Of a DNA stretch of 64,000 nucleotides, positions 3,447 through 18,017 are shown one piece after another; position 1 is the stretch's first letter, and each line of letters begins with the position of its first letter. The stretch lies in assembly GCA_022822745.1 (NCBI GenBank), contig JAJEAO010000006.1, forward strand, positions 9,509 to 73,508. Reading direction: 5' to 3'. The position numbers and the translations under genes are program-made. The notes beneath the pieces were generated by a model. That model was given only the letters and a program-made list of their open reading frames with translations, did not search any database and was not told the origin of the DNA. Source of the stretch: Acidobacteriota bacterium (lineage in GTDB: Bacteria; Acidobacteriota; Vicinamibacteria; Marinacidobacterales; Marinacidobacteraceae).

Positions 3447-3785
3447 CTCTCTTCTGCGACTTCGTCGGGGGCGTTGGCGGACAGGAACCTCGAGATCGAG
3501 CCGGGGCCGGAGGGGCGCCGGGCGGCTCACTCTCGATGGTACCCGGCCCGCCCCCGGTCACCGGTGCGCCCGGAGGAGCGACGGGCTCCGCCATCTCTCC
3601 CGGCAGGGGCCCGGCGCGGGCGGCGCGAACGAACCCCGCCTCCCGGAAATCGAACCTCGAAAGAGCGGTGCCTCACCGGAACGCGACGGAGCGCCGCCGG
3701 GGCCGCGAATCGCCGCGCTGGGGGGCGGCGCTCCCCGCCAGAGAACCGAGCGCGACGGATGGCCCCGTCCCTAGACTCCCGCCCC

Positions 3786-6700
3786 ATGACCAGCGCGCGG
3801 ACGGCCTTCCGGCAGGCGCTCTCCGAGCGGATCGTCGTCTTCGACGGCGCCGGCGGGACGATGCTGCAGTCGCTCCATCTCGACGAAGCCGGATTCCGCG
3901 GCGAGCGGCTCGCGGACCACCCGGAGCCGCTCTCCGGACTCCACGACGCGCTGTGCCTCACCCGCCCCGAACTCGTGGAACGGGTCCACCGCGACTACCT
4001 CGCCGCCGGCGCCGAAGCGCTCACCACGAACACGTTCAACGCGAACGCGGTCTCGCTGGCCGACTACGGCGCCTCGCACCTCGCCTTCGAGATGAACCGG
4101 GAGGGCGCCCGGGCGGCGCGGCGGGCCGTCGAAGCCTTCGCGCCGGACCGCCGGGTGTTCGTGCTCGGTTCGATCGGCCCGACGAACCGCACTCTCGGCA
4201 TCTCGCCCCGGGTCGAGGATCCCGGGTACCGCGCGGTCTCGTGGGAAGCGCTCCGCTCCGCCTACCTGGAGCAGGCGCGGGGGCTCCTCGCCGGGGGGGC
4301 CGACCTGCTGCTGGTCGAGACCTGCTTCGACACGCTGAACGCCAAGGCGGCGCTCGACGCCTGCCGGGAAGCGCTGGACGAGGTGGACGCGGGCTCCGGC
4401 CTGATCGTCTCGTTCACCGCGGTGGATCGAGGAGGACGGAACCTGACCGGCCAGGACTCCGAGGCCTTCTGGATCTCGGTGGCCCACGCCGGGGTCACCG
4501 CCGCCGGCGTGAACTGTTCCTTCGGGGCCGAGACGATGCGCCCGTTCGTGGAGCGGCTCGCCGCCTGCGCCCCGGTTCCGGTCGGAGCGGTCCCCAACGC
4601 GGGGCTCCCGAACGACCTCGGCGAGTACGACGAGACCCCGGCCACGACTGCCGAGGCCCTTGCCGAGCTCGCGGACAGCGGACTCCTGAACTTCACCGGC
4701 GGCTGCTGCGGCACGACGCCCGATCACATCGCCGCCGTCCGCGCCGCCGTCCGCGGAGCGGCGCCTCGGCGACTCCCGGAGCCTCGCGCCGGGCTCCGCC
4801 TCGCGGGGACCGATCCCCTGGTGCGGCCGGAGCGGGCGTTCCTCGTCGTCGGCGAGCGGACGAACGTCACCGGAAGCCGCCGATTCGCCCGGCTCATCCG
4901 CCGCCGGAAGTTCGAGGCCGCCGCCCGGGTGGCCCGCGGCCAGGTCCGCGGCGGCGCGAACCTCCTCGACGTGAACATGGACGCAGCGCTCCTGGACTCC
5001 GCCTCCCGCATGCGCCGCTTCCTCCGGTTTCTGGCGATGGAGCCCGACATCGCGCGCCTTCCGATCCTGGTGGACAGCTCGAAGCTGGAGGTGATCGAGA
5101 CCGGGCTCCGCTGCCTCCCGGGAAAAGGCGTCGTGAACTCGCTCTCGCTGAAGGACGGGGAGTCCGCGTTCCTCGAAGCCGCCCGGCGGGTGCGGCGCTA
5201 CGGGGCGGCGATCGTGGTGATGGCCTTCGACGAGGTCGGCCAGGCGGTGGACGCCGACCGCAAGACCGCCATCTGCCTCCGCGCCTACCGGCTCCTGACC
5301 GGCATCGACGTCCCTCCCGAGGACATCGTGTTCGATCCGAACGTCCTCGCGGTGGCCACCGGGATGGCGGAGCACGACCGATACGCGGTGGAGTTCCTCG
5401 AGGCCCTGCCCCGGATCGCGGCCGCCTGCCCCGGCGCCCTCCTCTCCGGCGGAATCTCGAACCTCTCGTTCGCCTTCCGCGGCCACGAGACGGTGCGGGG
5501 AGCGATGAACGCGGTGTTCCTGCACCACGCCATCGCCGCCGGACTCGACATGGCCATCGTGAACGCCGGGCGCCTGCCGGTCGTGGACGACATCCCGGCG
5601 GAGCTGCGGGAACGGGTGGAGGACGTGATCTTCGCGAGGCGGCCGGACGCCACCGCGCGGCTCGTGGCGCTCGCCTCCCGCACCGGTCGTCGCGCCGGCG
5701 CCCGGCGGGCGAAGGAGACCTGGCGCGGTCTCCCGGTGGGTGAGCGGCTCGCCCACGCCGTGATCCACGGCATCCTCGACCACGTCGGAGAGGACGCGAT
5801 CGAGGCCATCGGCGCGGAGGGCTCGGCGCTCTCCGTGATCGAGGGTCCGCTCATGGACGGGATGCGCGTCGTCGGAGACCGCTTCGGCGACGGGCGCATG
5901 TTTCTGCCCCAGGTCGTCAAGAGCGCCCGGGTGATGAAGCGCGCGGTGGCCCGGCTCCGTCCGCACATGGAGACCGGCGAGCGAGCCGCCGCCCGCCGGC
6001 CCCGGATCGTGCTGGCCACGGTCCGGGGGGACGTGCATGACATCGGCAAGAGCATCGTCGGCATCGTGCTCGCCTGCAGCGGATACGAAGTGGAGGATCT
6101 CGGCGTCATGGTCCCCGCCGACGGGATCCTCGCCGCGGCGGAAGCCGGCGACGCGGCTCTCGTCGGGCTCTCCGGGCTGATCACCCCGTCGCTCGACGAG
6201 ATGGAGCGGTTCGCGGTCGAAATGGAGCGCCGCGGCGACTCCCGACCGCTGCTGATCGGAGGCGCCACCACCTCGGCGCGGCACACGGCGCTCCGGATCG
6301 CTCCCCGCCGTTCCGGGCCGGTCGTCCACGTGCGCGACGCCTCCCGGGCGACCGGCGTGGCGCGGTCCCTCCTCGGGGCGGACCGCGAGAGCTACCTCGC
6401 CGCGGTGCGCGAGCGGCAGGCGCGGGAGCGGGGTCGAAGGGCCGGCCGGGGGCGCCGCCGGCTGCTCCCGCTCGAGGAGGCCCGCCGCCGGGCGCCGAGG
6501 TTCTCTCGGGCGAAGGACGTGCGCGCCAGCTTCCTCGGAGTCCGCCTCCTGCCCGACGTCCCCCTCCGGGAACTGCTCCCGTTCGTGGACTGGACCCCGT
6601 TCTTCCACGCCTGGCAGTTCCGGGGAACCTGGCCGGGGCTCCTCGATCACCCCGAGGCCGGACCCCCGGCGCGGGAGCTCCTCGAAGCCGCCCGCGCCCG

Positions 6701-7421
6701 CGCCGAGTCGCTGGCGGAGACGCGGGCGATCCGCGCCGCGGGGGCCTACGGCTTCTTCCCCGCGGCCCGCGAAGGCGACGACCTCCTCCTGTGGGAGGAC
6801 GGGGACGCCCGGGGCTCTCCGCGCTTCCGCATCCCCACGCTGCGGCAGCAGGAGGACCGCCCCGGCCCGCGTCTCGCCGCGGCGGATTTCGTGGCGCCGG
6901 CGAACGCGGACGGCCCGGAGGATGTGGTCGGGCTCTTCTGCGTCACCGCCGGGCTGGGCCTCCGCGCCGCGGTGGCGGCGGCCGAGCGCCGCGAGGACGA
7001 CTACGAGGCGCTCCTGCTCCGCTCGCTCGCCGACCGCCTCGCCGAAGCCTTCGCCGAGAGACTCCACCAGCGGGCGCGGCGCGATCTCGGCTACGGAGCG
7101 GCGGAGGATCTCTCCCCCCGGGAACTCCTCCGGGGCCGCTACCGCGGGATCCGCCCGGCCCCGGGCTACCCGGCGACGCCCGATCTCTCGATTCTGCAGC
7201 CGGTCTTCGAAGCGCTCGGCGCGGAGGCGGCGCTCGGGGTCCGCCTCACCGAGTCCTTCGCCATCGAGCCCGCAGCCTCGGTCGCCGGGCTCTACTTCGG
7301 GAGCGCCGAGGCCCGGTATTTCTCCGTGGGGAGGATCGGCCGCGACCAGCTCGAGGACTACGCCGGCCGGCGGCAGATCCCGATGGAGCGCGCCGAAGCG
7401 CTCCTCCGCCGCGTGCTCTGA
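3786..7421 (+). CDS. metH: Cobalamin-dependent methionine synthase
   Basis: Full four-module architecture at 1211 aa: homocysteine S-methyltransferase (IVVFDGAGGTMLQS), pterin-binding, B12-binding (GDVHDIGKSIVGIVL) and the AdoMet activation domain. The ATG at 3786 is in frame with the long ORF, whose 5' extension I reject. Confidence 0.95.
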   Translation: MTSARTAFRQALSERIVVFDGAGGTMLQSLHLDEAGFRGERLADHPEPLSGLHDALCLTRPELVERVHRDYLAAGAEALTTNTFNANAVSLADYGASHLAFEMNREGARAARRAVEAFAPDRRVFVLGSIGPTNRTLGISPRVEDPGYRAVSWEALRSAYLEQARGLLAGGADLLLVETCFDTLNAKAALDACREALDEVDAGSGLIVSFTAVDRGGRNLTGQDSEAFWISVAHAGVTAAGVNCSFGAETMRPFVERLAACAPVPVGAVPNAGLPNDLGEYDETPATTAEALAELADSGLLNFTGGCCGTTPDHIAAVRAAVRGAAPRRLPEPRAGLRLAGTDPLVRPERAFLVVGERTNVTGSRRFARLIRRRKFEAAARVARGQVRGGANLLDVNMDAALLDSASRMRRFLRFLAMEPDIARLPILVDSSKLEVIETGLRCLPGKGVVNSLSLKDGESAFLEAARRVRRYGAAIVVMAFDEVGQAVDADRKTAICLRAYRLLTGIDVPPEDIVFDPNVLAVATGMAEHDRYAVEFLEALPRIAAACPGALLSGGISNLSFAFRGHETVRGAMNAVFLHHAIAAGLDMAIVNAGRLPVVDDIPAELRERVEDVIFARRPDATARLVALASRTGRRAGARRAKETWRGLPVGERLAHAVIHGILDHVGEDAIEAIGAEGSALSVIEGPLMDGMRVVGDRFGDGRMFLPQVVKSARVMKRAVARLRPHMETGERAAARRPRIVLATVRGDVHDIGKSIVGIVLACSGYEVEDLGVMVPADGILAAAEAGDAALVGLSGLITPSLDEMERFAVEMERRGDSRPLLIGGATTSARHTALRIAPRRSGPVVHVRDASRATGVARSLLGADRESYLAAVRERQARERGRRAGRGRRRLLPLEEARRRAPRFSRAKDVRASFLGVRLLPDVPLRELLPFVDWTPFFHAWQFRGTWPGLLDHPEAGPPARELLEAARARAESLAETRAIRAAGAYGFFPAAREGDDLLLWEDGDARGSPRFRIPTLRQQEDRPGPRLAAADFVAPANADGPEDVVGLFCVTAGLGLRAAVAAAERREDDYEALLLRSLADRLAEAFAERLHQRARRDLGYGAAEDLSPRELLRGRYRGIRPAPGYPATPDLSILQPVFEALGAEAALGVRLTESFAIEPAASVAGLYFGSAEARYFSVGRIGRDQLEDYAGRRQIPMERAEALLRRVL

Positions 7422-7458
7422 ATCGGGAGTTCAGGACGCGCCGGTCAGGATCCGGGGT

Positions 7459-7890
7459 TCAGGACGCGCCGGTCGGGATCCGGTACTTCTCCACCGGCGC
7501 GCCGCCGCGGAGGTGGCTCTCGATGACCTCCTCGAGCGCCTCCGGGGTCATGTTCCGGTACCAGACGGCTTCCGGATAGACGACCGCCACCGGACCCTCG
7601 GCGCAGATCCGGAGGCAGTCCGCCTTCGTCCGCGCGACCGGACCCCGGGCGGGACCGCAGGCGAGGCCCAGCGCATCGAGACGCGCCTTCAGCAGGCGCC
7701 AGGAACGGGCGCCCGTCTCGGGATCGCAGCACTTCGGCTTCGAGGGGTCGGCGCAGAGGAAGATGTGCCGGCGGACGCCCGCGAGCCCGAGAGCCTCCGC
7801 CTTGCGGGCCGCGGCCGAGGGTTCGCCGGCAGCGGCCGCTCCCTTCCCGCGGCCGGCGGCTGGCGTCTTCTCGCGGCCGGCGGCTGGCAA
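7459..7890 (-). CDS. Thioredoxin-like [2Fe-2S] ferredoxin domain protein
   Basis: The C-terminal approx. 100 aa read VRRHIFLCADPSKPKCCDPETGARSWRLLKARLDALGLACGPARGPVARTKADCLRICAEGPVAVVYPEAVWYRNMTPEALEEVIE, matching the TRX-like Fd family. There is no in-frame ATG; I propose a TTG at 7890. The N-terminal low-complexity region contains a 2x24-nt tandem repeat. Confidence 0.5.
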   Translation of the reverse strand: MPAAGREKTPAAGRGKGAAAAGEPSAAARKAEALGLAGVRRHIFLCADPSKPKCCDPETGARSWRLLKARLDALGLACGPARGPVARTKADCLRICAEGPVAVVYPEAVWYRNMTPEALEEVIESHLRGGAPVEKYRIPTGAS

Positions 7891-7910
7891 TTTCCCGCCC
7901 CGCGGCGCCC

Positions 7911-8504
7911 TCACGCTCCGTTCGCGTCCCGCAGGATCCCCGCCGGACACGAGACGCCGGTCCGGACGATCCCGCAGTAGCCCCCCGGATTCTTCGCCAG
8001 GTACTGCTGGTGGTACTCCTCGGCGTAGTAGAACGGCTGTTCCCGGCGGATCTCGGTCGTGACCTCCGGGAACCCGGCGGCGGCGAAACGAACCCCGTAG
8101 GCCTCCTTCGCCGCGACCGCCGCCCGGAACTGGGCGTCGTCCGCCGGGTAGATCGTGGAGCGGTACTGCGTGCCCACATCGTTCCCCTGACGCATGCCCT
8201 GGGTCGGGTCGTGGTTCTCCCAGAACACCCGCAGCAGCTCGCCGAACGAAACCCGGTCCGGCCGGAACACGACCCGAACGACTTCGGCGTGCCCGGTCCG
8301 ACCGCTGCAGACTTCCCGGTAGGTCGGGTTCCGGGTGATTCCGCCCGCATACCCGACCGCGGTGCTGTACACCCCCGGCAGCTTCCAGAAGAGCCGTTCG
8401 GCGCCCCAGAAACACCCCATCCCGACGAGAGTCTCCGCCGTCCCCTCGGGCCACGGGGGGGTCAGCGGCGCGTCGAGCACGAAATGGCGGCGGGGCACCC
8501 GCAT
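7911..8504 (-). CDS. msrA: Peptide methionine sulfoxide reductase A
   Basis: 197 aa with [28 protein letters not shown] and EYHQQYL signatures. The ATG at 8502-8504 was located by counting back from the stop. Confidence 0.9.
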
Positions 8505-8705
8505 GGCTTTCACCCGGTGCGGCAGGGCGGTGGCCGGGGAGGGCAGCGTGGAGGGACGGGCGAAGGGAATCACGGCGGCCGGGCAGTCTATCCGGGGTCG
8601 GCGACGGCTCCTCCCGCCCGCGCGGACGCCGTTCGACGGGACCGTCCTCGCCGGCGCGCGCCGGCGCCCGGATCCGGCGCGCTCCCGGACGCCCAGTACA
8701 AGCGG

Positions 8706-8802
8706 CGGCGACGGCCAGGAGGAATCCCGGACCGCACCGGCGACAGCCAGGAGGAATCCCGTACCGCGCCGGCGACCGCCAGGGGAAATCCCCGGACCGT
8801 GC
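8706..8802. repeat. Three perfect-tandem copies of a 32-33 bp unit (cggcgacRgccaggRgaatcccSgaccgYRc) in the msrA/ALDH divergent intergenic region
   Basis: Read directly: copies at 8706-8737, 8738-8769 and 8770-8802, followed immediately by TATACT (8805-8810) and the GTG start of the ALDH gene at 8821. Confidence 0.85.
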
Positions 8803-8804
8803 CT

Positions 8805-8810
8805 ATACTC
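8805..8810 (+). promoter_or_regulatory. Candidate -10 element (TATACT) 10 nt upstream of the ALDH GTG start; possible leaderless or short-leader transcript
   Basis: This is the only AT-rich hexamer in a >70% GC intergenic region, positioned directly after the iteron array. Confidence 0.35.
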
Positions 8811-8820
8811 GCCCCCGCCA

Positions 8821-10197
8821 GTGGGAGAGAGCCCGGAACGAGCCGTCGCCCGCGCTCGACGGCTCGCATCGTCGGGCGCCCCCGCCTCCCGCGCGTTCCG
8901 GCGCCGCGCGCTCGGCTCGCTCCAGCGCCTCCTCGTCTCCAGGCGTTCGGCGTGGGAGGCGGCGCTCGCCGAGGATCTGGGCGTCCCCCCCTTCGAGGCG
9001 TGGGCGGCGCAGACGGGCGTGGTCCTCCAGGAAATCCGCCACGCCCGACGAAGGCTCCGGGGCTGGATGCGACCCGAGCGGGTCGGCTCTCCCCTCGCGC
9101 TCCTCCCGTCGCGGAGCCGGATCGAGCCCGCGCCGCTCGGGGTCGTGCTCGTCATCGCTCCCTGGAACTACCCGCTGCAGTTGAGCCTCGCCCCGGCGGT
9201 CGCGGCGCTGGCGGCGGGGAACACCGTCGTCCTGAAGCCCTCGGAGCACGCCCCGGCGACGGCGGCGCTCCTCGCCGAACTCCTCCCGGCGGCGCTCCCC
9301 GAGGGCCTCGTGGAAGTGGTTCCCGGAGGTCCGGATGTCGGGGCGGCCCTCGGCGGTTCCGGTGCGTTCGATCACATTCTCTTCACCGGCAGCCGCGGCG
9401 TGGGGGCGAGAGTGGCCGAGGCCGCCGGACGCACCCTGACCCCCGTCACCCTCGAGCTGGGAGGCAAGTGCCCAGTCCTCCTCGACAAGACTGCGAGCCT
9501 GCGGGTCGCGGCCCGGCGCATTGCCTGGGGAAAGTTCCTGAACGCCGGACAGACCTGCGTCGCCCCCGACTTCGCCCTCGTTCCGTCGAACCGCGCCGAG
9601 CGGTTCCACCGGGAGCTCGGCCGCGCCCTGGACCGGTTCTACGGACCCGACCCCGAGCAGAGCCCCGACTACGCCCGCATCGCGCACCGGGCGCACTTCG
9701 ACCGGCTCGCCCGGCTGCTCGAGGGCCTCCCGATCCGGCGCGGCGGAACCCGCGACCGGGAAACGCTCTACTTCGCGCCGACCGTGACCGGCCCCTGGCC
9801 CGACGGCCACGCCGCGGGCCGGGAGGAGATCTTCGGGCCCATTCTCCCGGTCCTTCCGTACGACACCCTCGATCAGGCGATCACCCTCGCCGCCGAACTG
9901 CCCCCTCCGCTCGCGCTCCACATCTTCACCCGTCGGCGACGGGTCGCGCGACGGGTCGCGGCGGCGGTGCGCTCCGGCGCCGTCCTCGTGAACGACGCCG
10001 TGCTCCACTGCGCGAACCCGGCGCTCCCGTTCGGCGGCGTCGGGGCGAGCGGGTATGGGGCGTACCACGGCGTCCACGGGTTCGACCGGCTCTCCCAGCC
10101 GCGCGCCTGGCTGACCTCCCTGCCCTGGTTCGACATCCCGCTCCGCTACCCGCCCTACCGGGGCAAACTGCCCATCCTCCGCCGGATCCTTCGTTGA
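8821..10197 (+). CDS. Class 3 (fatty/aromatic) aldehyde dehydrogenase
   Basis: 458 aa with LELGGKCP and [11 protein letters not shown] (catalytic Cys), plus [12 protein letters not shown]. The GTG at 8821 gives the class-3 N-terminus ([17 protein letters not shown]...). Its stop overlaps the start of the next gene (TGATG). Confidence 0.85.
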
Positions 10198-12614
10198 TGA
10201 CCTCGAACCCCGCACTCGCCCTCCTCGATCCGGTGTCCGGCCGGCCGCCGCTGAAGCCGCCGGAGGCCGCCCGCATCGCGGCGGAGATCTGGGGCCTCGA
10301 AGCGGACGCATCGCCGCTGCCGGGCGAGCGCGACGCGAACTTCCTCCTGACCTCCCGCTCGGGCGAGCGGTTCGTGCTCAAGGTCTCGGGCGCCGCCGAA
10401 GTCCCGGAGCGGGTCGAACTCCAGACCGCGATGCCGGCGCACATCCGGAAACGCGACCCCCGCCTCCGGACGCCGCGCGCCGTCCCCGCCCGAACCGGAT
10501 CCCCGGGCCCGAACGGGATCGCTGCATGCCGCATTCGGGGCCGAAGCCACGCGGCCCGGCTCCTCGTCCACCAGGACGGCGTGCCCCTCTCGGCCTTCCC
10601 TTCCCCCGCCCCGGCGATTCTCGATGCCGTCGGAAGTTTCGCGGGGCGGCTCCAGCGGACCCTCGCCGACTTCGATCATCCCGGCCTCCGCGCCCGGGAC
10701 CTGCCGTGGGCGCCGCAGCACGGGGCGCGGGTGATCTCCGCCGCAACGGGGCGAATCGAGGGCCCGGCGCGGCGAGCTCTCCACGCCCGGACGGCGGATT
10801 CCGTCCTGCCGCGGCTGCCGGCCCTGCTCGCTCTGCCGCAGGCCCCCCTCCACAACGACCTGAACGACGACAACCTGCTCCTCGCCGCCGGCGCGCCGGA
10901 GAGCGCGGGCCCCGAGGATCTGGCCGTTCTGGATTTCGGCGACGCCCTCGAGGGACCGGCGGTCGTCGAGGTCGCGACCGCGGCGCTCTATGCGGCGGGG
11001 GCCTCCGACGAGCCCCTGGCGGCGGCCGCCGCGGTCCTCGCCGGATTCGTCCGGGAGCGGCCGCTCTCGCGGGCGGAAGCGGGCGCCTTCCGCACCGCCC
11101 TCGCGCTCCGGGCGCTGGTGAGCGGGGGCATCGCCGCCATCCGACGGGCCGAGGTGCCGGGCGCCGCCGCCGACCCCTACCTGATGACCAGCGAGGCCGC
11201 CGTGTGGCGCGTGCTGGCGGCCCTCGATCGGGAATCGGCGCGCGAGTCCGGGGCCCGCTTCCTCGAGGCCGCCGGTCTCGCTCCTCCCGGCGCAGCTCGA
11301 GCCGGAGGCGACGACCCGAGGCGCCTCCTCGCCCGCCGGCGTCGCTGGTTCAGCCGCGCCCTGAGCATCTCCTACGACGATCCGATCCCGGTCGTCCGGG
11401 GCGCGGGCGCCCGGCTCCACGACCCCGACGGACGAAGCTACCTCGACATGGTGAACAACGTCTGCCATGTCGGGCACGCCCACCCCCGGGTCGCGGGGGC
11501 GATCGCCCGGCAGGCGGCGCGCGTCAACACGAACACGCGCTTCCTCTACCGGGAGCTCACCGATTACGCCGAGCGCCTCCTCGCCACGCTGCCGGACCCG
11601 CTCGAAGTCGTCTTCTTCACGAACTCGGGGAGCGAGTCGAACGACCTCGCGCTCCGGATCGCGAGAAACCGGCTGGGACGCTCCGCCACGCTCGTCTTCG
11701 ACGGCGCCTACCACGGCAACCTCACCTCCCTCATCGAGATCAGTCCCTACAAGCTGGATGGCCCCGGGGGCCGGCCCGGTCCGCCGTGGCTGCACCGTCT
11801 GCCGCTGCCCGACGGGTTCCGGGGACGATTCCGAGCGGAGGCGCCCGACTTTCCCGACGCGATGATCGCGGACGCTCGCCGGCGGGTGGCGGCCGCGGGC
11901 CCGGCCACTCTCGTCTCGGAGGCGATCCTCGGCTGCGGGGGGCAGGTCGTGCCTCCGCCGGGCTACCTGCGGGCGCTCTACCGGGCGGTCCGGGACGGGG
12001 GCGGGCTCATCGTCGCCGACGAGGTCCAGACCGGTTTCGGACGGGTGGGGCCCGCGTTCTGGGCCTTCGTCGAGGCGCAGCGCGGACCCGAAGCCGCCGA
12101 GCCCCCCGTGGTCCCGGACATCGTGACCCTGGGCAAACCCGCCGGAAACGGCCATCCGCTCGGGGCCGTGGTCACGACCCGCGAGCTCGCGAACTCGTTC
12201 GAGACCGGGATGGAGTACTTCAACACCTACGGCGGCAACCCGGTCTCCTGCGCCGCCGGACTCGCGGTCCTCGACGTCATCGAGAGCGAGGACCTGGCGG
12301 CCCACGCGGAACGGGTCGGCAACCGGCTGCTCGACGGCCTGAACCGGCTCGCGAACCGGTACCCTCTCATCGGAGAAGCGCGCGGGCGCGGTCTGTTCCT
12401 CGGCTTCGAGCTGGTGCGGGATCCCGAGACCCGCGCTCCCGCGACCGCGGAGGCGCGACGGCTGGTGAACCGCCTCCGCCAGGCGCGCATCCTGAACAGC
12501 ACCGACGGCCCCGACGCGAACGTCATCAAGATCAAGCCGCCGCTTCCGTTCTCGGCGGCGGACGCGGACCACTACCTGGAAGTCCTCGATCGAACGCTGA
12601 GTACCCCCGAATGA
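10197..12614 (+). CDS. Bifunctional fusion: N-terminal APH-fold (hydroxylysine-kinase/HYKK-like) amino-alcohol kinase plus C-terminal class-III aminotransferase-fold phospho-lyase (AGXT2L/ETNPPL-like)
   Basis: N-domain has [19 protein letters not shown] and VLDFGDA (APH/HYKK motifs). C-domain has [16 protein letters not shown]...[47 protein letters not shown] and [12 protein letters not shown], nearly colinear with eukaryotic phospho-lyases as I remember them. 805 aa; the ATG shares its A with the upstream TGA. Confidence 0.9.
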
Positions 12615-13312
12615 GCCCGACCCGGACCCTGCCCCGCTGGAGCCTGGTCGAGGTTCCGCCCCCCGGCGCGCATCGGACGACGATCGTCTGGCTCCACGGG
12701 CTCGGCGCCGACGGCCGGGACTTCGCTCCGGTCATCCCGGCGCTGCGGCTGCCGCGCCCCCTCGGGGTCCGGTTCCTGTTCCCGGAGGCGCCCATCCGTC
12801 CGGTCACCCTGAACGGCGGGATGGCGATGCGCGCCTGGTACGACATCGGCTCCATCACCGACTCCCGTGAACTGAACCGGGACCAGCTCGACGAGTCCGT
12901 CTCCGGGGTGCGGGCGCTCCTCGCCGCCGAACAAGAGCGCGGGATCCCGCCCGAGCGTCAGCTCCTCGTGGGCTTCTCGCAGGGGGGCGCGGTCGCGCTG
13001 AGCGCCGCCACCGCACGGGGGCCGGACGGATCCCCGCCTCCCCCGATCGGGGGGCTGGCTGCGCTCTCGACCTACCTGCCGCAGCCGGAGCGGCTCGTTC
13101 CCGGGGGGCGGGCGCCGATCTTCCTCGCCCACGGCTACTACGACGAAACGGTCCCGTTCCAGGCGGGAGCCAGGACCCGGGACGCCCTGGTGGCGGCCGG
13201 GTGGACCACGGACTTCCACGGCTACGCGATGGGCCACGCGGTGTGCGAAGAAGAGATCCGGGCGCTGGGCGCCTTCTTTCGGCAGGCGCTCGGCGGCGAG
13301 GCCGAATCGTGA
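12611..13312 (+). CDS. Alpha/beta-hydrolase carboxylesterase/phospholipase family (Abhydrolase_2-like)
   Basis: GFSQGG nucleophile elbow, downstream D and H (HGYAMGHAV), about 233 aa. ATGA overlap with the previous stop. Confidence 0.8.
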   Translation: MSPTRTLPRWSLVEVPPPGAHRTTIVWLHGLGADGRDFAPVIPALRLPRPLGVRFLFPEAPIRPVTLNGGMAMRAWYDIGSITDSRELNRDQLDESVSGVRALLAAEQERGIPPERQLLVGFSQGGAVALSAATARGPDGSPPPPIGGLAALSTYLPQPERLVPGGRAPIFLAHGYYDETVPFQAGARTRDALVAAGWTTDFHGYAMGHAVCEEEIRALGAFFRQALGGEAES

Positions 13313-14328
13313 CCGGCCCCGAACCGGTCACCCTGGTCACCGGCTCCGCGGGCGAGATCGGGGCCAACCTGGTGCGGGAGCTCGTCCGCCGGGGCGACCG
13401 GGTCGTCACGGTGGACCTCCGACCCGGCCGAGAGGGATCGGGCGCCCTCGCTCACTTCGCCGGGGACATCACCGATCCGGCGCTCTGGAACGCGTTCGGG
13501 GCCCGCTACCTCCCCCGGACGACGTTCCACCTGGCCGCGGTGCTCTCCACCCACGCCGAGCGGAGCCCCACGCTCGCGCACCGGGTGAACATCGAGGGAA
13601 CGGCCCGGCTGCTGCGCCTCGCTCGCGACGCCGGATCGGCCGCGAACCCGGCGCGGTTCCTGTTTCCCAGCTCGATCGCCGTGTACGGCTTCCCGTCCCG
13701 ATCGCGGAAGGCGGCCGCGGGCAACGTGCGGGAAGACGAGCACCTCGATCCGGCCACGCTCTACGGACAGCAGAAGCTCTACATCGAGCGGCTCGGCGCC
13801 GCCCTCGAACGGGAGCGTCCGGGGCTCGATTTCCGAGCGGTCCGGTTCCCCGGGCTGATCTCCTGCGACACCGTGCCCCAGGGCGGCACGAGCGACTGGG
13901 CGCCGGAACTCCTCCACGCCGCCGCCCGCGGCGAGCCCTGCGCGTTCTTCGTCCGGGGCGACGCGCGGCTCCCGTTCTGCGCCATGCCGGACGCCGTCCG
14001 CGGCCTTCTCCAGCTCGCGGGCAGCGACCGGGCGAACCTGCGCCGGACCGCCTACAACCTGGGCGGATCCAGTTTCTCCGCCGATGAAGTCATTGCGCGC
14101 GTCCGGAGGGACTTCCCCGATGTCCGGGTTCACCGCGCGCTCGACGAGGAGCGGGACCGGATCGTTGCGAGCTGGCCGGGCGCGGTGGACGACGGCGCCG
14201 CGCGCCGCGACTTCGGCTGGGCGCCCGCCCACGACCGGGAGACCCTGTTCTCCCGCTACCTGATTCCCGGCATCCGGGCCCGCTACCGGCGGACTCGGGA
14301 CGAGCCGTCCGTCGCGGAGGTCCGATGA
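13309..14328 (+). CDS. Extended-SDR NAD-dependent epimerase/dehydratase-fold enzyme, L-threonine 3-dehydrogenase (TDH)-like
   Basis: TLVTGSAGEIG Rossmann motif. SSIAVYG, FPGLISCDTVPQGGTSDWAPELL, YNLGGSSFSADEV and ASWPGAVDDGAARRDFGW each match remembered signatures of SDR-type TDH. GTGA overlap with the previous stop. Confidence 0.75.
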   Translation: MTGPEPVTLVTGSAGEIGANLVRELVRRGDRVVTVDLRPGREGSGALAHFAGDITDPALWNAFGARYLPRTTFHLAAVLSTHAERSPTLAHRVNIEGTARLLRLARDAGSAANPARFLFPSSIAVYGFPSRSRKAAAGNVREDEHLDPATLYGQQKLYIERLGAALERERPGLDFRAVRFPGLISCDTVPQGGTSDWAPELLHAAARGEPCAFFVRGDARLPFCAMPDAVRGLLQLAGSDRANLRRTAYNLGGSSFSADEVIARVRRDFPDVRVHRALDEERDRIVASWPGAVDDGAARRDFGWAPAHDRETLFSRYLIPGIRARYRRTRDEPSVAEVR

Positions 14329-15092
14329 CGATGCAGCGCCCCGTTCCTTCCCCCCTGTGGCCCGGCCTCGCGGCCCCGCTGCTGTCGGCCGCTCTCGGAG
14401 CGGTCACCTACATCGGGCTCACGCGGCTCAGCCCGGACCCCGATCAGGACTATCTCCTCCGCCTCTCGGTGGTCGCGCTCGTCATGCTCGCGCCCCCGGT
14501 GTGGGCGCTGCGGCGCTTCGTCCTCGCCCGGCGCGCCGGAGCGCTCACGGCCGGCGGCTGGGCGGGCGCGGGAGTCGCGCTGCTGTCGCTGGGCCTCGTG
14601 GCCGCCCCCATCGGCGGCGCGCTCCGCCGCGCCCGCCAGGCGGCGAACCTCGCGCTCGAAGGGGTTCCGGCCCCTGAGTTCCGCGCCGCCGACCTCGACG
14701 GCAACGTCCACCGGCTCTCCGACCACGCCGGATCCGTCGTCCTCGTGAACATCTGGGCCACCTGGTGCCCGCCCTGCCGGGCCGAGATGCCCGAACTGGA
14801 CCGCCTCGCGAAGGAGCGGGCGGAACAGGGCTTCGCGGTCTTCGGGGTCTCCACCGAGGACGCCGCCACCCAGGAAGCCTTCCGCCGGGAGATGGTGTCG
14901 GTGGACTATCCGCTGCTCCTCCCCGACGCGCTCGCGGACGGCGTCATGCCGGACATCTTCACCGAGACCGCCCGCTACCCGGCGAACTTCCTGATCGACC
15001 GGGACGGACTCCTCCACCCGGCGCCGAGCACGGATCAGCCATTCTCGGCGCTCGAAGCGGCAGTGGACCGGCTCCTGGAAGACATCCGTTAG
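14325..15092 (+). CDS. Membrane-anchored TlpA/ResA-type thiol:disulfide oxidoreductase
   Basis: WATWCPPC motif in a thioredoxin fold, with an N-terminal TM segment. ATGA overlap with the TDH-like gene. Confidence 0.8.
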   Translation: MTMQRPVPSPLWPGLAAPLLSAALGAVTYIGLTRLSPDPDQDYLLRLSVVALVMLAPPVWALRRFVLARRAGALTAGGWAGAGVALLSLGLVAAPIGGALRRARQAANLALEGVPAPEFRAADLDGNVHRLSDHAGSVVLVNIWATWCPPCRAEMPELDRLAKERAEQGFAVFGVSTEDAATQEAFRREMVSVDYPLLLPDALADGVMPDIFTETARYPANFLIDRDGLLHPAPSTDQPFSALEAAVDRLLEDIR

Positions 15093-15120: not shown

Positions 15121-16575
15121 ATGAAGAACATCCTCCGGATTGCCCGGCGGCAGATCCACTCCATCCTCGAGACGCGCTCCACGATCCTCCTTCTGGTTCT
15201 CGTCGCCGCTCTCGGCATCGTCTCCGGCCTCGGCGCCCGCCACCACGCCGTCCGGGAAGCGGAGGCGCGGCTCGAACAGCAGTCCCTGGTGGAGCGCCAG
15301 TGGCTGGAGCAGCCGGGCCGTCATCCGCACCGGGTGATCCACTACGGGTTCCTGCTCTTCCGCGAAGAAGCGCCCCTCGCCTTCTTCGACCCCGGAGTCA
15401 GTCCCTGGGCCGGGACCGCGCTCTACCTCGAAGGGCACCGCCAGAACTCCGCCAGTTTCGGTGACGCGCGCCACGCGACCAGCGCGGCGAGCTTCGGACG
15501 GCTCACGCCGGCTGCCGTGCTCGGGCTCCTCGCGCCGCTGCTCATCATCGTCGCCGGGTTCGCCTCGGTGAGCGGCGAGCGGGAGCAGGGCACGCTGCCG
15601 CTGCTCCTGGCGCAGGGCGCGACCCCGGGGCAGATCGTGGCGGGGAAGTCGCTGGGCATCGGCGCGGCCGCAGCCGCCGCCGCGCTTCCCGTCGGGCTGG
15701 TGACCGCCGCCTTCATGGCGTTCGGTGGCGCAGAAGCGCCCTCGTGGCTCCGGGTCGGGGCGCTCGTCGCCACCTATGGCGCCTACCTGGCTGGGTGGGT
15801 GCTGGTCACGGTCTGGATCTCCTCGCGCCGGAAGTCCTCGGGCGCCGCTCTCGCCCACCTCGTCGCGCTGTGGGTCGTCCTGGGCGTCGGCGCGCCTCGC
15901 CTCGCCGCTTCCGTGGCGGCGGGACTCCATCCAGAGCCCTCGCGCGCCGAGCTCACGGCGCAGGTGCAGGCGGCGGAACGGCAAGTCGGCGAGAGCCACA
16001 ACCCCGACGACCCCTTCTTCGCCGCGCTGCGCGACGAGTACCTGACGCGCTACCAGGTGTCCTCGGTGGAGGAGCTTCCGGTCAACTGGCGAGGCCTGGT
16101 CAGCCGCGAGGGGGAGGCGGCAACGAGCCGCATCCACGAGGAGCACCAGCTCGAACTGCTGGGTGTTCACCAGCGTCAGAACCGCGTCATCGGATGGTTC
16201 GGGCTGCTCGCGCCGCACCTGGCGATGCGGGATCTCTCCATGTCGGCGGCGGGCACCGGACCCGAGGCAGTGGAGGCATTCCGGGCGCAGGCCGAAGCGC
16301 ACCGTTACGACCGCATCCAGCGCCTCAACGACCTCCACATCCACCAGATCCATCTCGAGAACGACCGCGCGCAGCGGCTGTCGCGGGAGGAGTGGGAGCG
16401 GTTTCCGGAGTTTCGGCTGGAACCGCCTTCGCTGCGTCAGGCCCTCGCGGACCGCCCGCAGGCGCTGGCCGGACTGGGGCTGTGGATGCTGGTCCCCTTG
16501 CTGGGGCTGGCGCTCGGTCGCGAACGGCTCTCGCGCGTGAGCGAGCCGGCGTCGAGAAAGGAGCCGGCGGCATGA
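15121..16575 (+). CDS. ABC-2-type transporter permease-like membrane protein (DUF3526-like)
   Basis: 484 aa with an N-terminal TM, a central 4-5 TM block and a C-terminal TM; the architecture recalls the paired DUF3526 permeases. No ATPase gene is adjacent. Confidence 0.55.
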   Translation: MKNILRIARRQIHSILETRSTILLLVLVAALGIVSGLGARHHAVREAEARLEQQSLVERQWLEQPGRHPHRVIHYGFLLFREEAPLAFFDPGVSPWAGTALYLEGHRQNSASFGDARHATSAASFGRLTPAAVLGLLAPLLIIVAGFASVSGEREQGTLPLLLAQGATPGQIVAGKSLGIGAAAAAAALPVGLVTAAFMAFGGAEAPSWLRVGALVATYGAYLAGWVLVTVWISSRRKSSGAALAHLVALWVVLGVGAPRLAASVAAGLHPEPSRAELTAQVQAAERQVGESHNPDDPFFAALRDEYLTRYQVSSVEELPVNWRGLVSREGEAATSRIHEEHQLELLGVHQRQNRVIGWFGLLAPHLAMRDLSMSAAGTGPEAVEAFRAQAEAHRYDRIQRLNDLHIHQIHLENDRAQRLSREEWERFPEFRLEPPSLRQALADRPQALAGLGLWMLVPLLGLALGRERLSRVSEPASRKEPAA

Positions 16576-18017
16576 GATCCACGCGGTGGCGACTGCTCCG
16601 GCTGGAATGGGCCCGGATGTTCCGTTCGGGCGGCTCCACGGTCGCGGCGTGCCTGGTGATCGCCCTCGGGGCGTACGCCGCCTGGGAGGGACGGCAGCGA
16701 CTCGGAGCGGTCGAAGCGAGCGCCGCAGCGGCCGAGGAAGGCTACCGGAGCCAGCTCGAATTTCTCGTCGGGCGCTATCCCCCGACGACGGAAGCCGGCG
16801 AGCTGCTGTACTACCTGACGTTTCCGGCTTCGCAGCCACCATCCCGTCTCTCGGGACTCGCGAGCGGGAGGGAGGCCGTCGAGACGGCGAATCTCCGGAT
16901 CCGGTTGCTCGCGCTCGAAGGGCAGCTCTACGAGCAGGAGACGCTCAATCCGCGTCTCGCCGCCGCCGGGAGGCTCGACCTCGGCTTCGTGCTGCTCGCG
17001 CTGCTGCCGCTTCTCATCATCGCCATCACCTACGATCTCGTCTCCGGGGAGCGCGAGCGCGGGACATGGCGGCTGGCGCAGCTCTTCGTCCCGTCGAGTC
17101 GGCTCGTGGGGGTGAAGACCGGCGCCCGGATCCTCGTGGTGGCAGGTCTCGTCGTTTCGCTGCTCGCGATCGGGGCGCTTGCCACCGGACTCGACGGGGA
17201 CGGGCGCCCCGGCTGGGCTGCGGCTCTCGTCGTCCTGCACACGGCGTTCTGGTTCGCTCTGTGTCTGGCGGTCGCCACGGGTCGCCGCTCATCCACGGCC
17301 AACGCGATGGTGCTGGTCGGCGCCTGGGTGGCGCTCACCTTCCTGGCGCCAGCGGTGCTGAGCCTCATGAACACGATCCTCCACCCGGCGCCGGAAGCTC
17401 TCGATCTGACCGTCCGCCAGCGACAGGGCTACCACGAAGCCTGGGATCTCCCTCGGGAGGAAACGATGGAGGAGTTCTTCGAGGACTACCCCGAGTGGAG
17501 CGACTGGATCGTCCCGCAGGATCGGTTCACCTGGGCCTGGTACTACGCGATGAATCACCGGGGGGATCAGGCCGCCCGCGAGACCTCACGCGCCTACCGG
17601 GATGTGCTCGCCCGCCGGGATGCCTGGGCCGGGCGGTGGTCCCTCCTCGTCCCGCCTCTCGCGGCCCGGATCGCCCTCGACCGGCTGGCGTCGAGCGACC
17701 TGGAAGCTCAGCTCGCTTACCAGGAGGCGGTCCGCAGCTATCACGAGCGGCTCAAGACGCACTTCCAGCCGATCCTGTTCGCGGAGACGCCGCACCCCGA
17801 AGTGGACTGGAGCCGAGTGCCGATCTTCGAACCCGCCGCTCCGGTGGAAGCGCCTGCCGCCGCAGGGCTCCCGGCCGCCGCCTCGCTGGCGCTCGCCTCG
17901 CTGCTGGCCCTCTGGGGCGCTCGTGGCCGCCGAGCGCTCTCGTTCAGCGCTCTCCGCCGAGGAAGCCGAACGCCATCACCGCCGGCACCGCGATTCCGTT
18001 CAGCGTCGCCGGGCTGA
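16572..18017 (+). CDS. Second DUF3526-like ABC-2 permease-like membrane protein
   Basis: Paralogous architecture to the previous gene with an ATGA overlap. The 3' end may be shorter than the ORF (convergent overlap with the TPR gene). Confidence 0.55.
   Translation: MRSTRWRLLRLEWARMFRSGGSTVAACLVIALGAYAAWEGRQRLGAVEASAAAAEEGYRSQLEFLVGRYPPTTEAGELLYYLTFPASQPPSRLSGLASGREAVETANLRIRLLALEGQLYEQETLNPRLAAAGRLDLGFVLLALLPLLIIAITYDLVSGERERGTWRLAQLFVPSSRLVGVKTGARILVVAGLVVSLLAIGALATGLDGDGRPGWAAALVVLHTAFWFALCLAVATGRRSSTANAMVLVGAWVALTFLAPAVLSLMNTILHPAPEALDLTVRQRQGYHEAWDLPREETMEEFFEDYPEWSDWIVPQDRFTWAWYYAMNHRGDQAARETSRAYRDVLARRDAWAGRWSLLVPPLAARIALDRLASSDLEAQLAYQEAVRSYHERLKTHFQPILFAETPHPEVDWSRVPIFEPAAPVEAPAAAGLPAAASLALASLLALWGARGRRALSFSALRRGSRTPSPPAPRFRSASPG

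Follow-up and report, generated by a model that had tools for sequence, protein, structure and literature searches.

A kinase/phospho-lyase fusion protein of an Acidobacteriota bacterium lies in a conserved operon that hints at amino alcohol degradation

In a 64,000-nucleotide stretch of contig JAJEAO010000006.1 from an Acidobacteriota bacterium (assembly GCA_022822745.1, positions 9,509 to 73,508 of the forward strand; the whole stretch is referred to here as the window), a single gene encodes an 805-residue protein in which an APH-fold kinase domain is joined to a domain resembling the pyridoxal phosphate (PLP)-dependent phospho-lyases. We favor the view, with a probability of a little over 0.6, that this is a bifunctional catabolic enzyme, and that it provides the kinase and phospho-lyase steps of a route continued by an aldehyde dehydrogenase (ALDH) and encoded in a conserved operon. 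The fusion as such is already known. What is new here is the conserved operon, with genes for a class-3 ALDH (ALDH3), the fusion, an esterase, a short-chain dehydrogenase/reductase (SDR) of the L-threonine 3-dehydrogenase (TDH) family and a redoxin, the composition of which hints at the amino alcohol that is degraded. The fusion gene and its parts are as follows.

10197..12614, + strand: kinase/phospho-lyase fusion gene, an uninterrupted open reading frame (ORF) from ATG to TGA (12612-12614), 805 aa
10197..11270, + strand: kinase domain of the APH fold, residues 1-358 (Pfam APH, family profile, AlphaFold AF2 model)
11271..11372, + strand: interdomain linker, residues 359-392 (low pLDDT; a gap opposite the M23 domain of relatives)
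11373..12614, + strand: PLP-dependent phospho-lyase-like domain with the class-III aminotransferase fold, residues 393-805 (PDB matches, motifs)

Translation of 10197..12614 (+) reveals no internal stop codon or frameshift, and Pfam places APH at residues 39-281 (E 2.9e-16) and Aminotran_3 (PF00202) at residues 396-801 (E 4e-71) of the one polypeptide. The G+C content of the window is 70-76%, and long spurious ORFs are therefore abundant. We consider the fusion start codon to be sound, because the first base of its ATG is also the last base of the ALDH stop codon (TGATG) and because the homologues P0002 and P0003 align to the protein from residue 1; the in-frame extension upstream of this ATG is an off-frame of the ALDH gene. 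The identical protein is also encoded on a 139 kb ENA metagenome-assembled genome (MAG) scaffold and on independent Logan contigs, and the two-domain build recurs in other marine metagenomes, in relatives with identities of 86% and 70%. The wider family was collected by a pattern scan of one genome per species, which gave at least 600 confirmed relatives; 80 loci were retained, and both domains are in a single frame in about 72 of these. A frameshift, or the joining of two genes by an assembly artefact, is excluded by the uninterrupted frame, the independent assemblies and the relatives of the same build.

Twenty family sequences with 43-86% identity to the window protein were aligned (alignment A1). 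Residues invariant in A1 include, in the kinase half, K62 (VLK), H219, D221, N223 and D224 (loop HNDLNDDN) and D246 of DFGD, and, in the PLP half, S477-G-S479, Y505-H-G, D608-E-V-Q611, K647 and R729. A preliminary description of this DNA had proposed one polypeptide composed of an APH-type small-molecule kinase and an ETNPPL/AGXT2L-type PLP domain, and the single 805-aa ORF with two significant Pfam domains agrees with this. The catalytic residues on which it had staked that proposal, HNDLN (219-223) and the PLP lysine (K647), are both present and invariant in the 20-sequence alignment, and the frameshift that it had allowed for is not found, with the same uninterrupted frame in independent assemblies.

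By the features tested, in sequence and in a structural model, the N-terminal half is a predicted member of the APH-fold amino-alcohol kinases. It contains an ATP-binding lysine (K62), an HxDxxxxN catalytic loop (H219-N-D221-L-N-D-D-N226) and a DFG-like metal-binding aspartate (D246-F-G-D249), as expected of the APH fold (PF01636, E 2.9e-16), and K62, H219/D221/N226 and D246 are invariant in both alignments A1 and A2. A single-sequence PDB search with the kinase domain gave no significant match; searching the PDB with a family profile gave the Agrobacterium type-II homoserine kinase 2ppq (2.6e-16) and 6ef6 (1.1e-14), the latter a mycobacterial microcompartment-associated aminopropanol kinase according to its Foldseek label. 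An AF2 model of residues 1-358 (pLDDT 91.7) was ranked against the PDB with Foldseek, and 2ppq is placed first, the N-acetylhexosamine 1-phosphate kinase 4ocj second and 6ef6 third, with the choline/ethanolamine kinases 3dxq and 2qg7 below both 2ppq and 6ef6. Homoserine kinase is also the sole named NCBIfam family for the kinase half besides the fusion models. The preliminary description had called this domain hydroxylysine-kinase-like; none of the PDB matches obtained with the single sequence, the profile or Foldseek is an HYKK structure.

The C-terminal half is, by the features tested, a putative member of the AGXT2L-type phospho-lyases. Its key features are Lys647, D608-E-V-Q611, a motif at residues 420-430 and NTNTRFL at residues 444-450. 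The two top PDB matches are the only phospho-lyases in the list: human ETNPPL (6tor; E 4e-126, 48% identity over 415 residues) and the Arthrobacter phospholyase A1RDF1 (5g4i; E 3e-89, 41% identity), with alignments spanning about 415-430 residues. The first non-lyase match is an aminocaprolactam racemase (1.5e-59), followed by GABA transaminases (~1e-47). K647 is opposite the lysine of TMGKPMGNGHP in 6tor and D608-E-V-Q is opposite ADEVQ, and the C-terminal domain has the motifs NNVxHVGHxHP and NTN(T/S)RFL in common with both ETNPPL and A1RDF1, whereas the racemase alignment contains neither.

Pfam and NCBIfam name this domain only as a class-III aminotransferase, and the NCBI-derived names of the homologues likewise read 'aminotransferase class III-fold'. 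Such labels would suit an ordinary omega-transaminase with some other coupling to the kinase, which, together with the joining of two genes by a sequencing error, we regard as very improbable: the two solved phospho-lyases lead the first non-lyase in the PDB search by more than 30 orders of magnitude in E-value, and independent assemblies, like about 72 of the 80 retained loci, have this same uninterrupted frame.

A phospho-lyase assignment for the C-terminal half leaves a choice of substrates, on which the neighboring genes bear. The other four genes of the operon are listed here.

8821..10197, + strand: class-3 (ALDH3-type) NAD(P)-dependent aldehyde dehydrogenase, 458 aa, operon gene 1 (Pfam Aldedh, E 2.6e-84)
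12611..13312, + strand: Abhydrolase_2 carboxylesterase/acyl-thioesterase-like protein, 233 aa (ATGA overlap with the fusion stop codon)
13309..14328, + strand: extended SDR of the GalE-like L-threonine 3-dehydrogenase family, 339 aa (PDB matches, motifs)
14325..15092, + strand: membrane-anchored TlpA/ResA-like thiol:disulfide oxidoreductase, the last conserved gene (Pfam AhpC-TSA and Redoxin; NCBIfam TlpA-like)

All four junctions of this five-gene run overlap (TGATG, ATGA, GTGA and ATGA), which indicates translational coupling. Residues 5-454 of the ALDH match ALDH3A1 and fatty aldehyde dehydrogenase in the PDB with E-values of 1e-101 to 1e-106, a benzaldehyde dehydrogenase is also among its best matches, and the catalytic motifs ELGG (212) and GQTC (243) are intact. 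These data (matches of about 1e-103) confirm the class-3 ALDH that had been placed directly upstream of the fusion in the preliminary description. Other gene callers (NCBI, and members of the Logan cluster) give the ALDH as 376 aa and apparently miss part of its N-terminus, since ALDH3 homology in the 458-aa form begins as early as residue 5. The esterase is matched in the PDB by the carboxylesterases 3cn7 (6e-44) and 1auo (2e-39) and by APT1/2 (~1e-25), and has the nucleophile motif GFSQG at residue 121. The redoxin has CPPC at residue 148 and a hydrophobic N-terminus.

Pfam labels the SDR gene only as 'epimerase'. The features tested, all of them read from the sequence, nonetheless place the product unmistakably in the SDR-type (GalE-like) TDH family: it matches SDR-type TDHs in the PDB with E-values from 7e-48 to 4e-31 compared with 1e-12 for the best non-TDH SDR, and it has the motifs GSAGEIG (GxxGxxG), SSIA and Y152-x3-K156, with a loop PQGGTSDWA opposite PGGGTTDYA of the TDHs. 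It carries LSTHAE where canonical TDHs have LSATGE. No kbl gene was found among the genes called within 10 kb either side of the fusion.

The order ALDH-fusion-esterase-SDR is kept in loci L003, L004 and L014 (a Vicinamibacteria MAG) and in those of the homologues P0010, P0042, P0056 and P0072, down to 59% identity in the lyase domain and with differing outer flanks; that the order persists while the flanks differ argues that the module is under selection. The esterase gene adjoins the fusion in L003, L004, L014 and L088-L091, and the SDR gene is likewise kept. A redoxin gene follows the SDR gene in L003, L004, L014 and L088-L090, and is missing from the P0072 locus. These operon partners are limited to one clade, which is probably acidobacterial; the other approximately 75 loci examined have none of these neighbors.

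In the reaction of ETNPPL and PHYKPL, phosphate and ammonia are lost from H2N-CH2-CH(OPO3)-R by 1,2-elimination, and R-CH2-CHO is formed. By such chemistry, the APH-fold domain of the window protein would transfer phosphate to the hydroxyl group of a small vicinal amino alcohol (H2N-CH2-CH(OH)-R), the PLP domain would remove phosphate and ammonia from the resulting O-phospho-amino-alcohol by 1,2-elimination to yield the aldehyde R-CH2-CHO, and the co-translated class-3 ALDH would oxidize this to the acid. The fusion probably secures 1:1 expression of the first two steps. An amino-alcohol kinase, an O-phosphate phospho-lyase and an aldehyde dehydrogenase acting on ethanolamine and 1-aminopropan-2-ol were reportedly described in the 1970s biochemistry of Erwinia and Pseudomonas.

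We propose that the most likely substrate is 1-aminopropan-2-ol derived from threonine or aminoacetone, an assignment to which we give somewhat less than even odds. It is preferred because the SDR belongs to a family that oxidizes the CH3-CH(OH)-CH(NH2)- unit of threonine, and it is ranked first because the RMM/aminoacetone locus clusters the same enzyme types and its kinase, 6ef6, is near the kinase domain. This locus, found in Mycobacterium and Rhodococcus, encodes an aminopropanol dehydrogenase, an APH phosphotransferase, a class-III aminotransferase-like protein and an aldehyde dehydrogenase (PMC4207490, PMC6620236). The TDH product 2-amino-3-ketobutyrate decays to aminoacetone unless it is consumed by KBL, and canonical tdh is paired with kbl (PMC9814548). 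We infer that the operon has, in place of kbl, the partners needed to convert aminoacetone/1-aminopropan-2-ol to propanal and propionate, and the complete route would run from threonine through 2-amino-3-oxobutyrate, aminoacetone, 1-aminopropan-2-ol and propanal to propionate. Of the substrates suggested in the preliminary description, aminopropanol is thus the one that fits best, with the added observation of a TDH-family SDR in the operon that had gone unnoticed, and the sphingoid base is the one that we would drop. Its amine is on C2, so on chemical reasoning elimination would give a ketone and an ALDH would not be needed, and we consider a sphingoid-base substrate unlikely.

Several points weigh against this proposal. 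The closest characterized relative of the lyase domain acts on phosphoethanolamine and not on aminopropanol phosphate, and class-3 ALDHs usually favor aldehydes that are medium-chain, long-chain or aromatic, rather than propanal. The threonine route requires an aminoacetone reductase step, for which either the SDR itself or some gene elsewhere would be needed, and it gives neither the esterase nor the redoxin a function. No activity data for any bacterial fusion were found in the literature. Moreover, the approximately 75 other loci have neither the operon partners nor any common neighbor, so the family as a whole may use other substrates, and one proteobacterial pair of split genes (described below) is next to a Lys/Arg/Orn-type ATP-binding cassette (ABC) transporter, which points to a basic amino acid such as hydroxylysine in that setting.

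The similarity to ETNPPL raises the question of whether the fusion is instead an ethanolamine kinase and phosphoethanolamine phospho-lyase, converting ethanolamine to acetaldehyde and then acetate as a B12-independent alternative to ethanolamine ammonia-lyase. A possible source would be the turnover of phosphatidylethanolamine, in which the esterase would be a lysophospholipase. Human ETNPPL and then 5g4i are the closest characterized homologues of the C-terminal domain, the esterase is related to enzymes of the lysophospholipase/acyl-protein-thioesterase type, and the ALDH gene adjoins the fusion, all in keeping with this idea. However, the closer relatives of the kinase domain are homoserine and aminopropanol kinases, with the choline/ethanolamine kinases 3dxq and 2qg7 ranking lower, the TDH-family SDR has no role in ethanolamine breakdown, class-3 ALDHs are, as a matter of general knowledge, poor acetaldehyde enzymes, and the operon contains no glycerophosphodiesterase gene. 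On balance we think ethanolamine rather unlikely.

The class of the ALDH might be taken to indicate a hydrophobic, long-chain or aromatic 1-amino-2-ol (a 1-amino-2-alkanol, phenylethanolamine or octopamine) giving a fatty aldehyde or arylacetaldehyde for the class-3 enzyme, much as the preliminary description had suggested; phenylethanolamine or octopamine could arise from a β-hydroxy amino acid by way of the TDH-like SDR and a decarboxylation. The best ALDH matches (ALDH3A1 and the fatty aldehyde and benzaldehyde dehydrogenases) are consistent with such a product, the esterase could free the amino alcohol from an acylated precursor, and the substrate loop of the SDR differs from that of canonical TDHs (PQGGTSDWA and LSTHAE versus PGGGTTDYA and LSATGE). 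There is, however, no positive evidence for a substrate of this kind, and the lyase domain is highly similar to the enzyme for the smallest member of the series, such that we regard it as quite improbable.

The retained loci span Acidobacteriota, Gemmatimonadota, Chloroflexota, Planctomycetota, Bacteroidota (Pedobacter), Pseudomonadota (Shewanella abyssi, Ensifer adhaerens and Acidovorax) and Asgard archaeal MAGs. Two architectures are represented, kinase plus lyase (~770-810 aa) and kinase plus M23 peptidase plus lyase (~1000-1070 aa). The three-domain genes in Asgard MAGs, with about 50% lyase-domain identity, are at 8001-11039 in L051 (Thorarchaeota CP070658.1) and at 89-3091 in L064 (Promethearchaeota). 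The NCBIfam models PRK06148 and PRK06149, which describe three-domain proteins, are the best matches for both halves of the window protein, with scores below the cutoffs (777 bits against 1128, and 606 against 973), each in two separate stretches; the protein is not a full-length member of either model, being below cutoff and having the M23 segment deleted. Clustering of flanking ORFs around 83 loci revealed no family-wide partner, and the largest cluster, of 7 loci, consists of sensor kinases.

Bacterial fusions reportedly served Veiga-da-Cunha et al. in 2012 as the clue to identifying HYKK, ETNPPL and PHYKPL, and the abstract of that work is said to mention bacterial bi- and tri-functional proteins with a kinase of the aminoglycoside-phosphotransferase family. 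A passage in a 2025 review (PMC12138971) points to gene fusions as a guide to function and gives as a case the hydroxylysine kinase and ammoniophospholyases identified in 2012. The preliminary description therefore overstated the novelty of the fusion, which has at least 600 relatives and NCBIfam models and has been known since 2012. Its statement that the substrate of the bacterial fusions is uncharacterized stands, in that our literature searches found no paper assigning a substrate to, or characterizing, a bacterial kinase/lyase fusion.

Split homologues, with the kinase and lyase encoded by adjacent plasmid genes, are present at 2917-10222 in L086 (Klebsiella pneumoniae pINF358.3, CP110559.1) and at 5700-10280 in L087 (Chelatococcus daeguensis pTAD1). 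Each pair has a GntR regulator and an EamA transporter as neighbors; the Klebsiella pair is also beside the Lys/Arg/Orn-type ABC transporter, and the Chelatococcus pair is also near a Zn hydrolase, a deacetylase-family gene and ectoine-utilization genes. The GntR, EamA and Lys/Arg/Orn ABC transporter neighbors suggest that the amino alcohol used may vary from one branch of the family to another. S9 peptidase-like ORFs adjoin the fusion in L006, L011, L031, L036 and L078, and Xaa-Pro aminopeptidase-like ORFs do so in L041, L052, L057 and L069 (both labelled by eye). Peptidase neighbors of these two kinds would fit a peptide- or collagen-derived substrate, for example hydroxylysine, in those lineages.

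A bacterial counterpart of HYKK plus PHYKPL has to be considered for the window protein also, with 5-hydroxylysine from collagen-like proteins or hydroxylysine lipids phosphorylated, cleaved to 2-aminoadipate semialdehyde and oxidized by the ALDH to 2-aminoadipate. The role of the fusion family as the reported 2012 clue to HYKK and PHYKPL speaks for such a function, as do its appearance as a fusion example in the passage of the 2025 review cited above, the Lys/Arg/Orn ABC transporter adjoining the Klebsiella split genes, the S9 and Xaa-Pro peptidases that neighbor the fusion in a few loci, and the M23 peptidase-like domain carried by relatives. The M23 domain is, however, lost in the window protein and degenerate in its nearest relatives, and the operon includes no amino-acid transporter or peptidase. 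Furthermore, aminoadipate-semialdehyde dehydrogenases are generally known to be ALDH7-type and not class 3. Hydroxylysine would be a surprising substrate in this clade, and 1-aminopropan-2-ol is still the one that we prefer.

The two-domain build of the window protein appears to be secondary. The full-length AlphaFold model has two confident domains and a disordered 34-residue linker, with pLDDT below 50 at residues 364-376 and 384-391 and a pTM of 0.54. With this linker and pTM, the relative position of the two active sites is undefined, and the model neither supports nor opposes the channeling between the domains that the preliminary description had proposed. In close relatives the site of the linker is occupied by an M23 peptidase-like domain of about 230 residues; the alignment has a clean gap of about 230 residues in the window protein opposite the M23 domain of P0004, P0007 and P0009, and Pfam finds no M23 (PF01551) in the window protein. 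After P0002 and P0003, the nearest relatives are three-domain proteins with a lyase half 73-77% identical and a kinase half about 56% identical, whereas other two-domain proteins are just 43-50% identical to the window protein. In a neighbor-joining tree of the lyase domain, the clade of P0001-P0003 falls within a larger one of 40 three-domain proteins; forms with two domains are scattered over several separate places in the tree.

The M23 zinc ligands are themselves replaced in the nearest three-domain relatives (HxxxD to QLGIE, and HxH to HLQ), whereas distant three-domain members retain HLGID and HLH. Among the three-domain relatives within P0004-P0120, the first motif is QxxxE in 30 proteins, or S/T/ExxxE, compared with HxxxD in 24, and the second is HLQ in 30 compared with HLH in 34; overall, these motifs are degenerate in about half of the kinase-M23-lyase proteins. 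The middle domain is thus probably non-catalytic in many lineages. From the three-domain nearest relatives, the nesting in the tree and the clean deletion, we conclude that the window protein is a derived form that has lost a probably non-catalytic middle domain.

The spacer upstream of the operon contains one further conserved feature, identified by its invariant core in orthologous loci.

8802..8812, + strand: conserved CCTATACTCGC element with TATACT, -10-like

The last base of the element is 9 nt, and that of the TATACT hexamer 11 nt, ahead of the ALDH start codon (GTG). The window and the loci L003, L004, L088 and L089 agree throughout the core TATACTC and at several flanking positions, and the rest of the spacer is not alignable. 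We interpret CCTATACTCGC as the probable -10 element of the operon, which would give a very short leader and a nearly leaderless mRNA. Scans for sigma-70 promoters and intrinsic terminators found nothing above chance, and the consensus promoter scan did not pick up this element. Between msrA and the ALDH start, at 8706-8799, a 32-bp unit (consensus CGGCGACAGCCAGGAGGAATCCCGGACCGCAC) is present in 2.9 tandem copies, each of which holds an AGGAGG-like stretch. The orthologous spacers of L003 and L004 have no such repeat, which suggests a recent lineage-specific expansion.

Further upstream (~3760-8573) are a B12-dependent methionine synthase gene, metH (+), followed by a small hypothetical gene and msrA (-), divergent from the ALDH gene, an arrangement that is syntenic in L003, L004 and L088. 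Downstream of the redoxin gene, at 15121-18017, are two tandem ABC-2-type permease genes with DUF3526, which are found in the window and L003 and are missing from L004. As L004 is otherwise syntenic, these permeases are probably not part of the amino-alcohol module.

Automated annotation of this large family, which is spread over many bacterial phyla and some archaea, stops at 'aminotransferase class III'. The operon does not represent a new kind of system, and its value is as a concrete, testable lead to the family substrate. It is possible, and we suggest it only tentatively, that the operon constitutes an undescribed shell-free route in Acidobacteriota by which threonine-derived aminoacetone or another vicinal amino alcohol is disposed of as a carboxylic acid. 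If so, this would provide the first physiological substrate for the widespread PRK06148-type kinase/phospho-lyase family and would imply that the M23-like middle domain is dispensable. A substrate assignment would improve the annotation of at least 600 homologous loci in species-representative genomes, and would throw light on the recycling of amino alcohols by uncultured Acidobacteriota, in which they would serve as carbon, nitrogen and phosphate-neutral substrates.

Four known systems invite comparison. The animal HYKK and PHYKPL pair offers an analogy for the proposed reaction order, in which a kinase would act first and be followed by PLP-dependent loss of phosphate and ammonia with formation of an aldehyde, but the animal genes are separate and the operon context of the window protein does not point to lysine metabolism. 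The PRK06148/PRK06149 fusions share with the window protein an N-terminal kinase, a C-terminal PLP domain and the same catalytic residues; they differ in the central M23 domain, which the window protein does not have, and most family members are missing the ALDH3-esterase-TDH-like-SDR operon of the window clade. Human ETNPPL (AGXT2L1, 6tor) and A1RDF1 (5g4i/5g4j) have the PLP lysine, NNVxHVGHxHP and NTN(T/S)RFL in common with the window domain, although both are stand-alone enzymes acting on phosphoethanolamine, whereas the window domain is fused to a presumed kinase.

The RMM/aminoacetone locus resembles the window locus in encoding together a kinase, a class-III PLP enzyme, an SDR of the amino-alcohol dehydrogenase type and an aldehyde dehydrogenase, and the aminopropanol kinase 6ef6 that it encodes is one of the solved structures closest to the window kinase domain. 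In the window locus, however, the kinase and lyase are fused, and no shell-protein genes are present within 10 kb, as no bacterial microcompartment (BMC) shell Pfam family was found among the genes called that far to either side. The dehydrogenase is a TDH-family extended SDR rather than the classical SDR of the RMM locus, the ALDH is a class-3 non-acylating enzyme rather than a CoA-acylating one, and the window operon adds an esterase and a redoxin.

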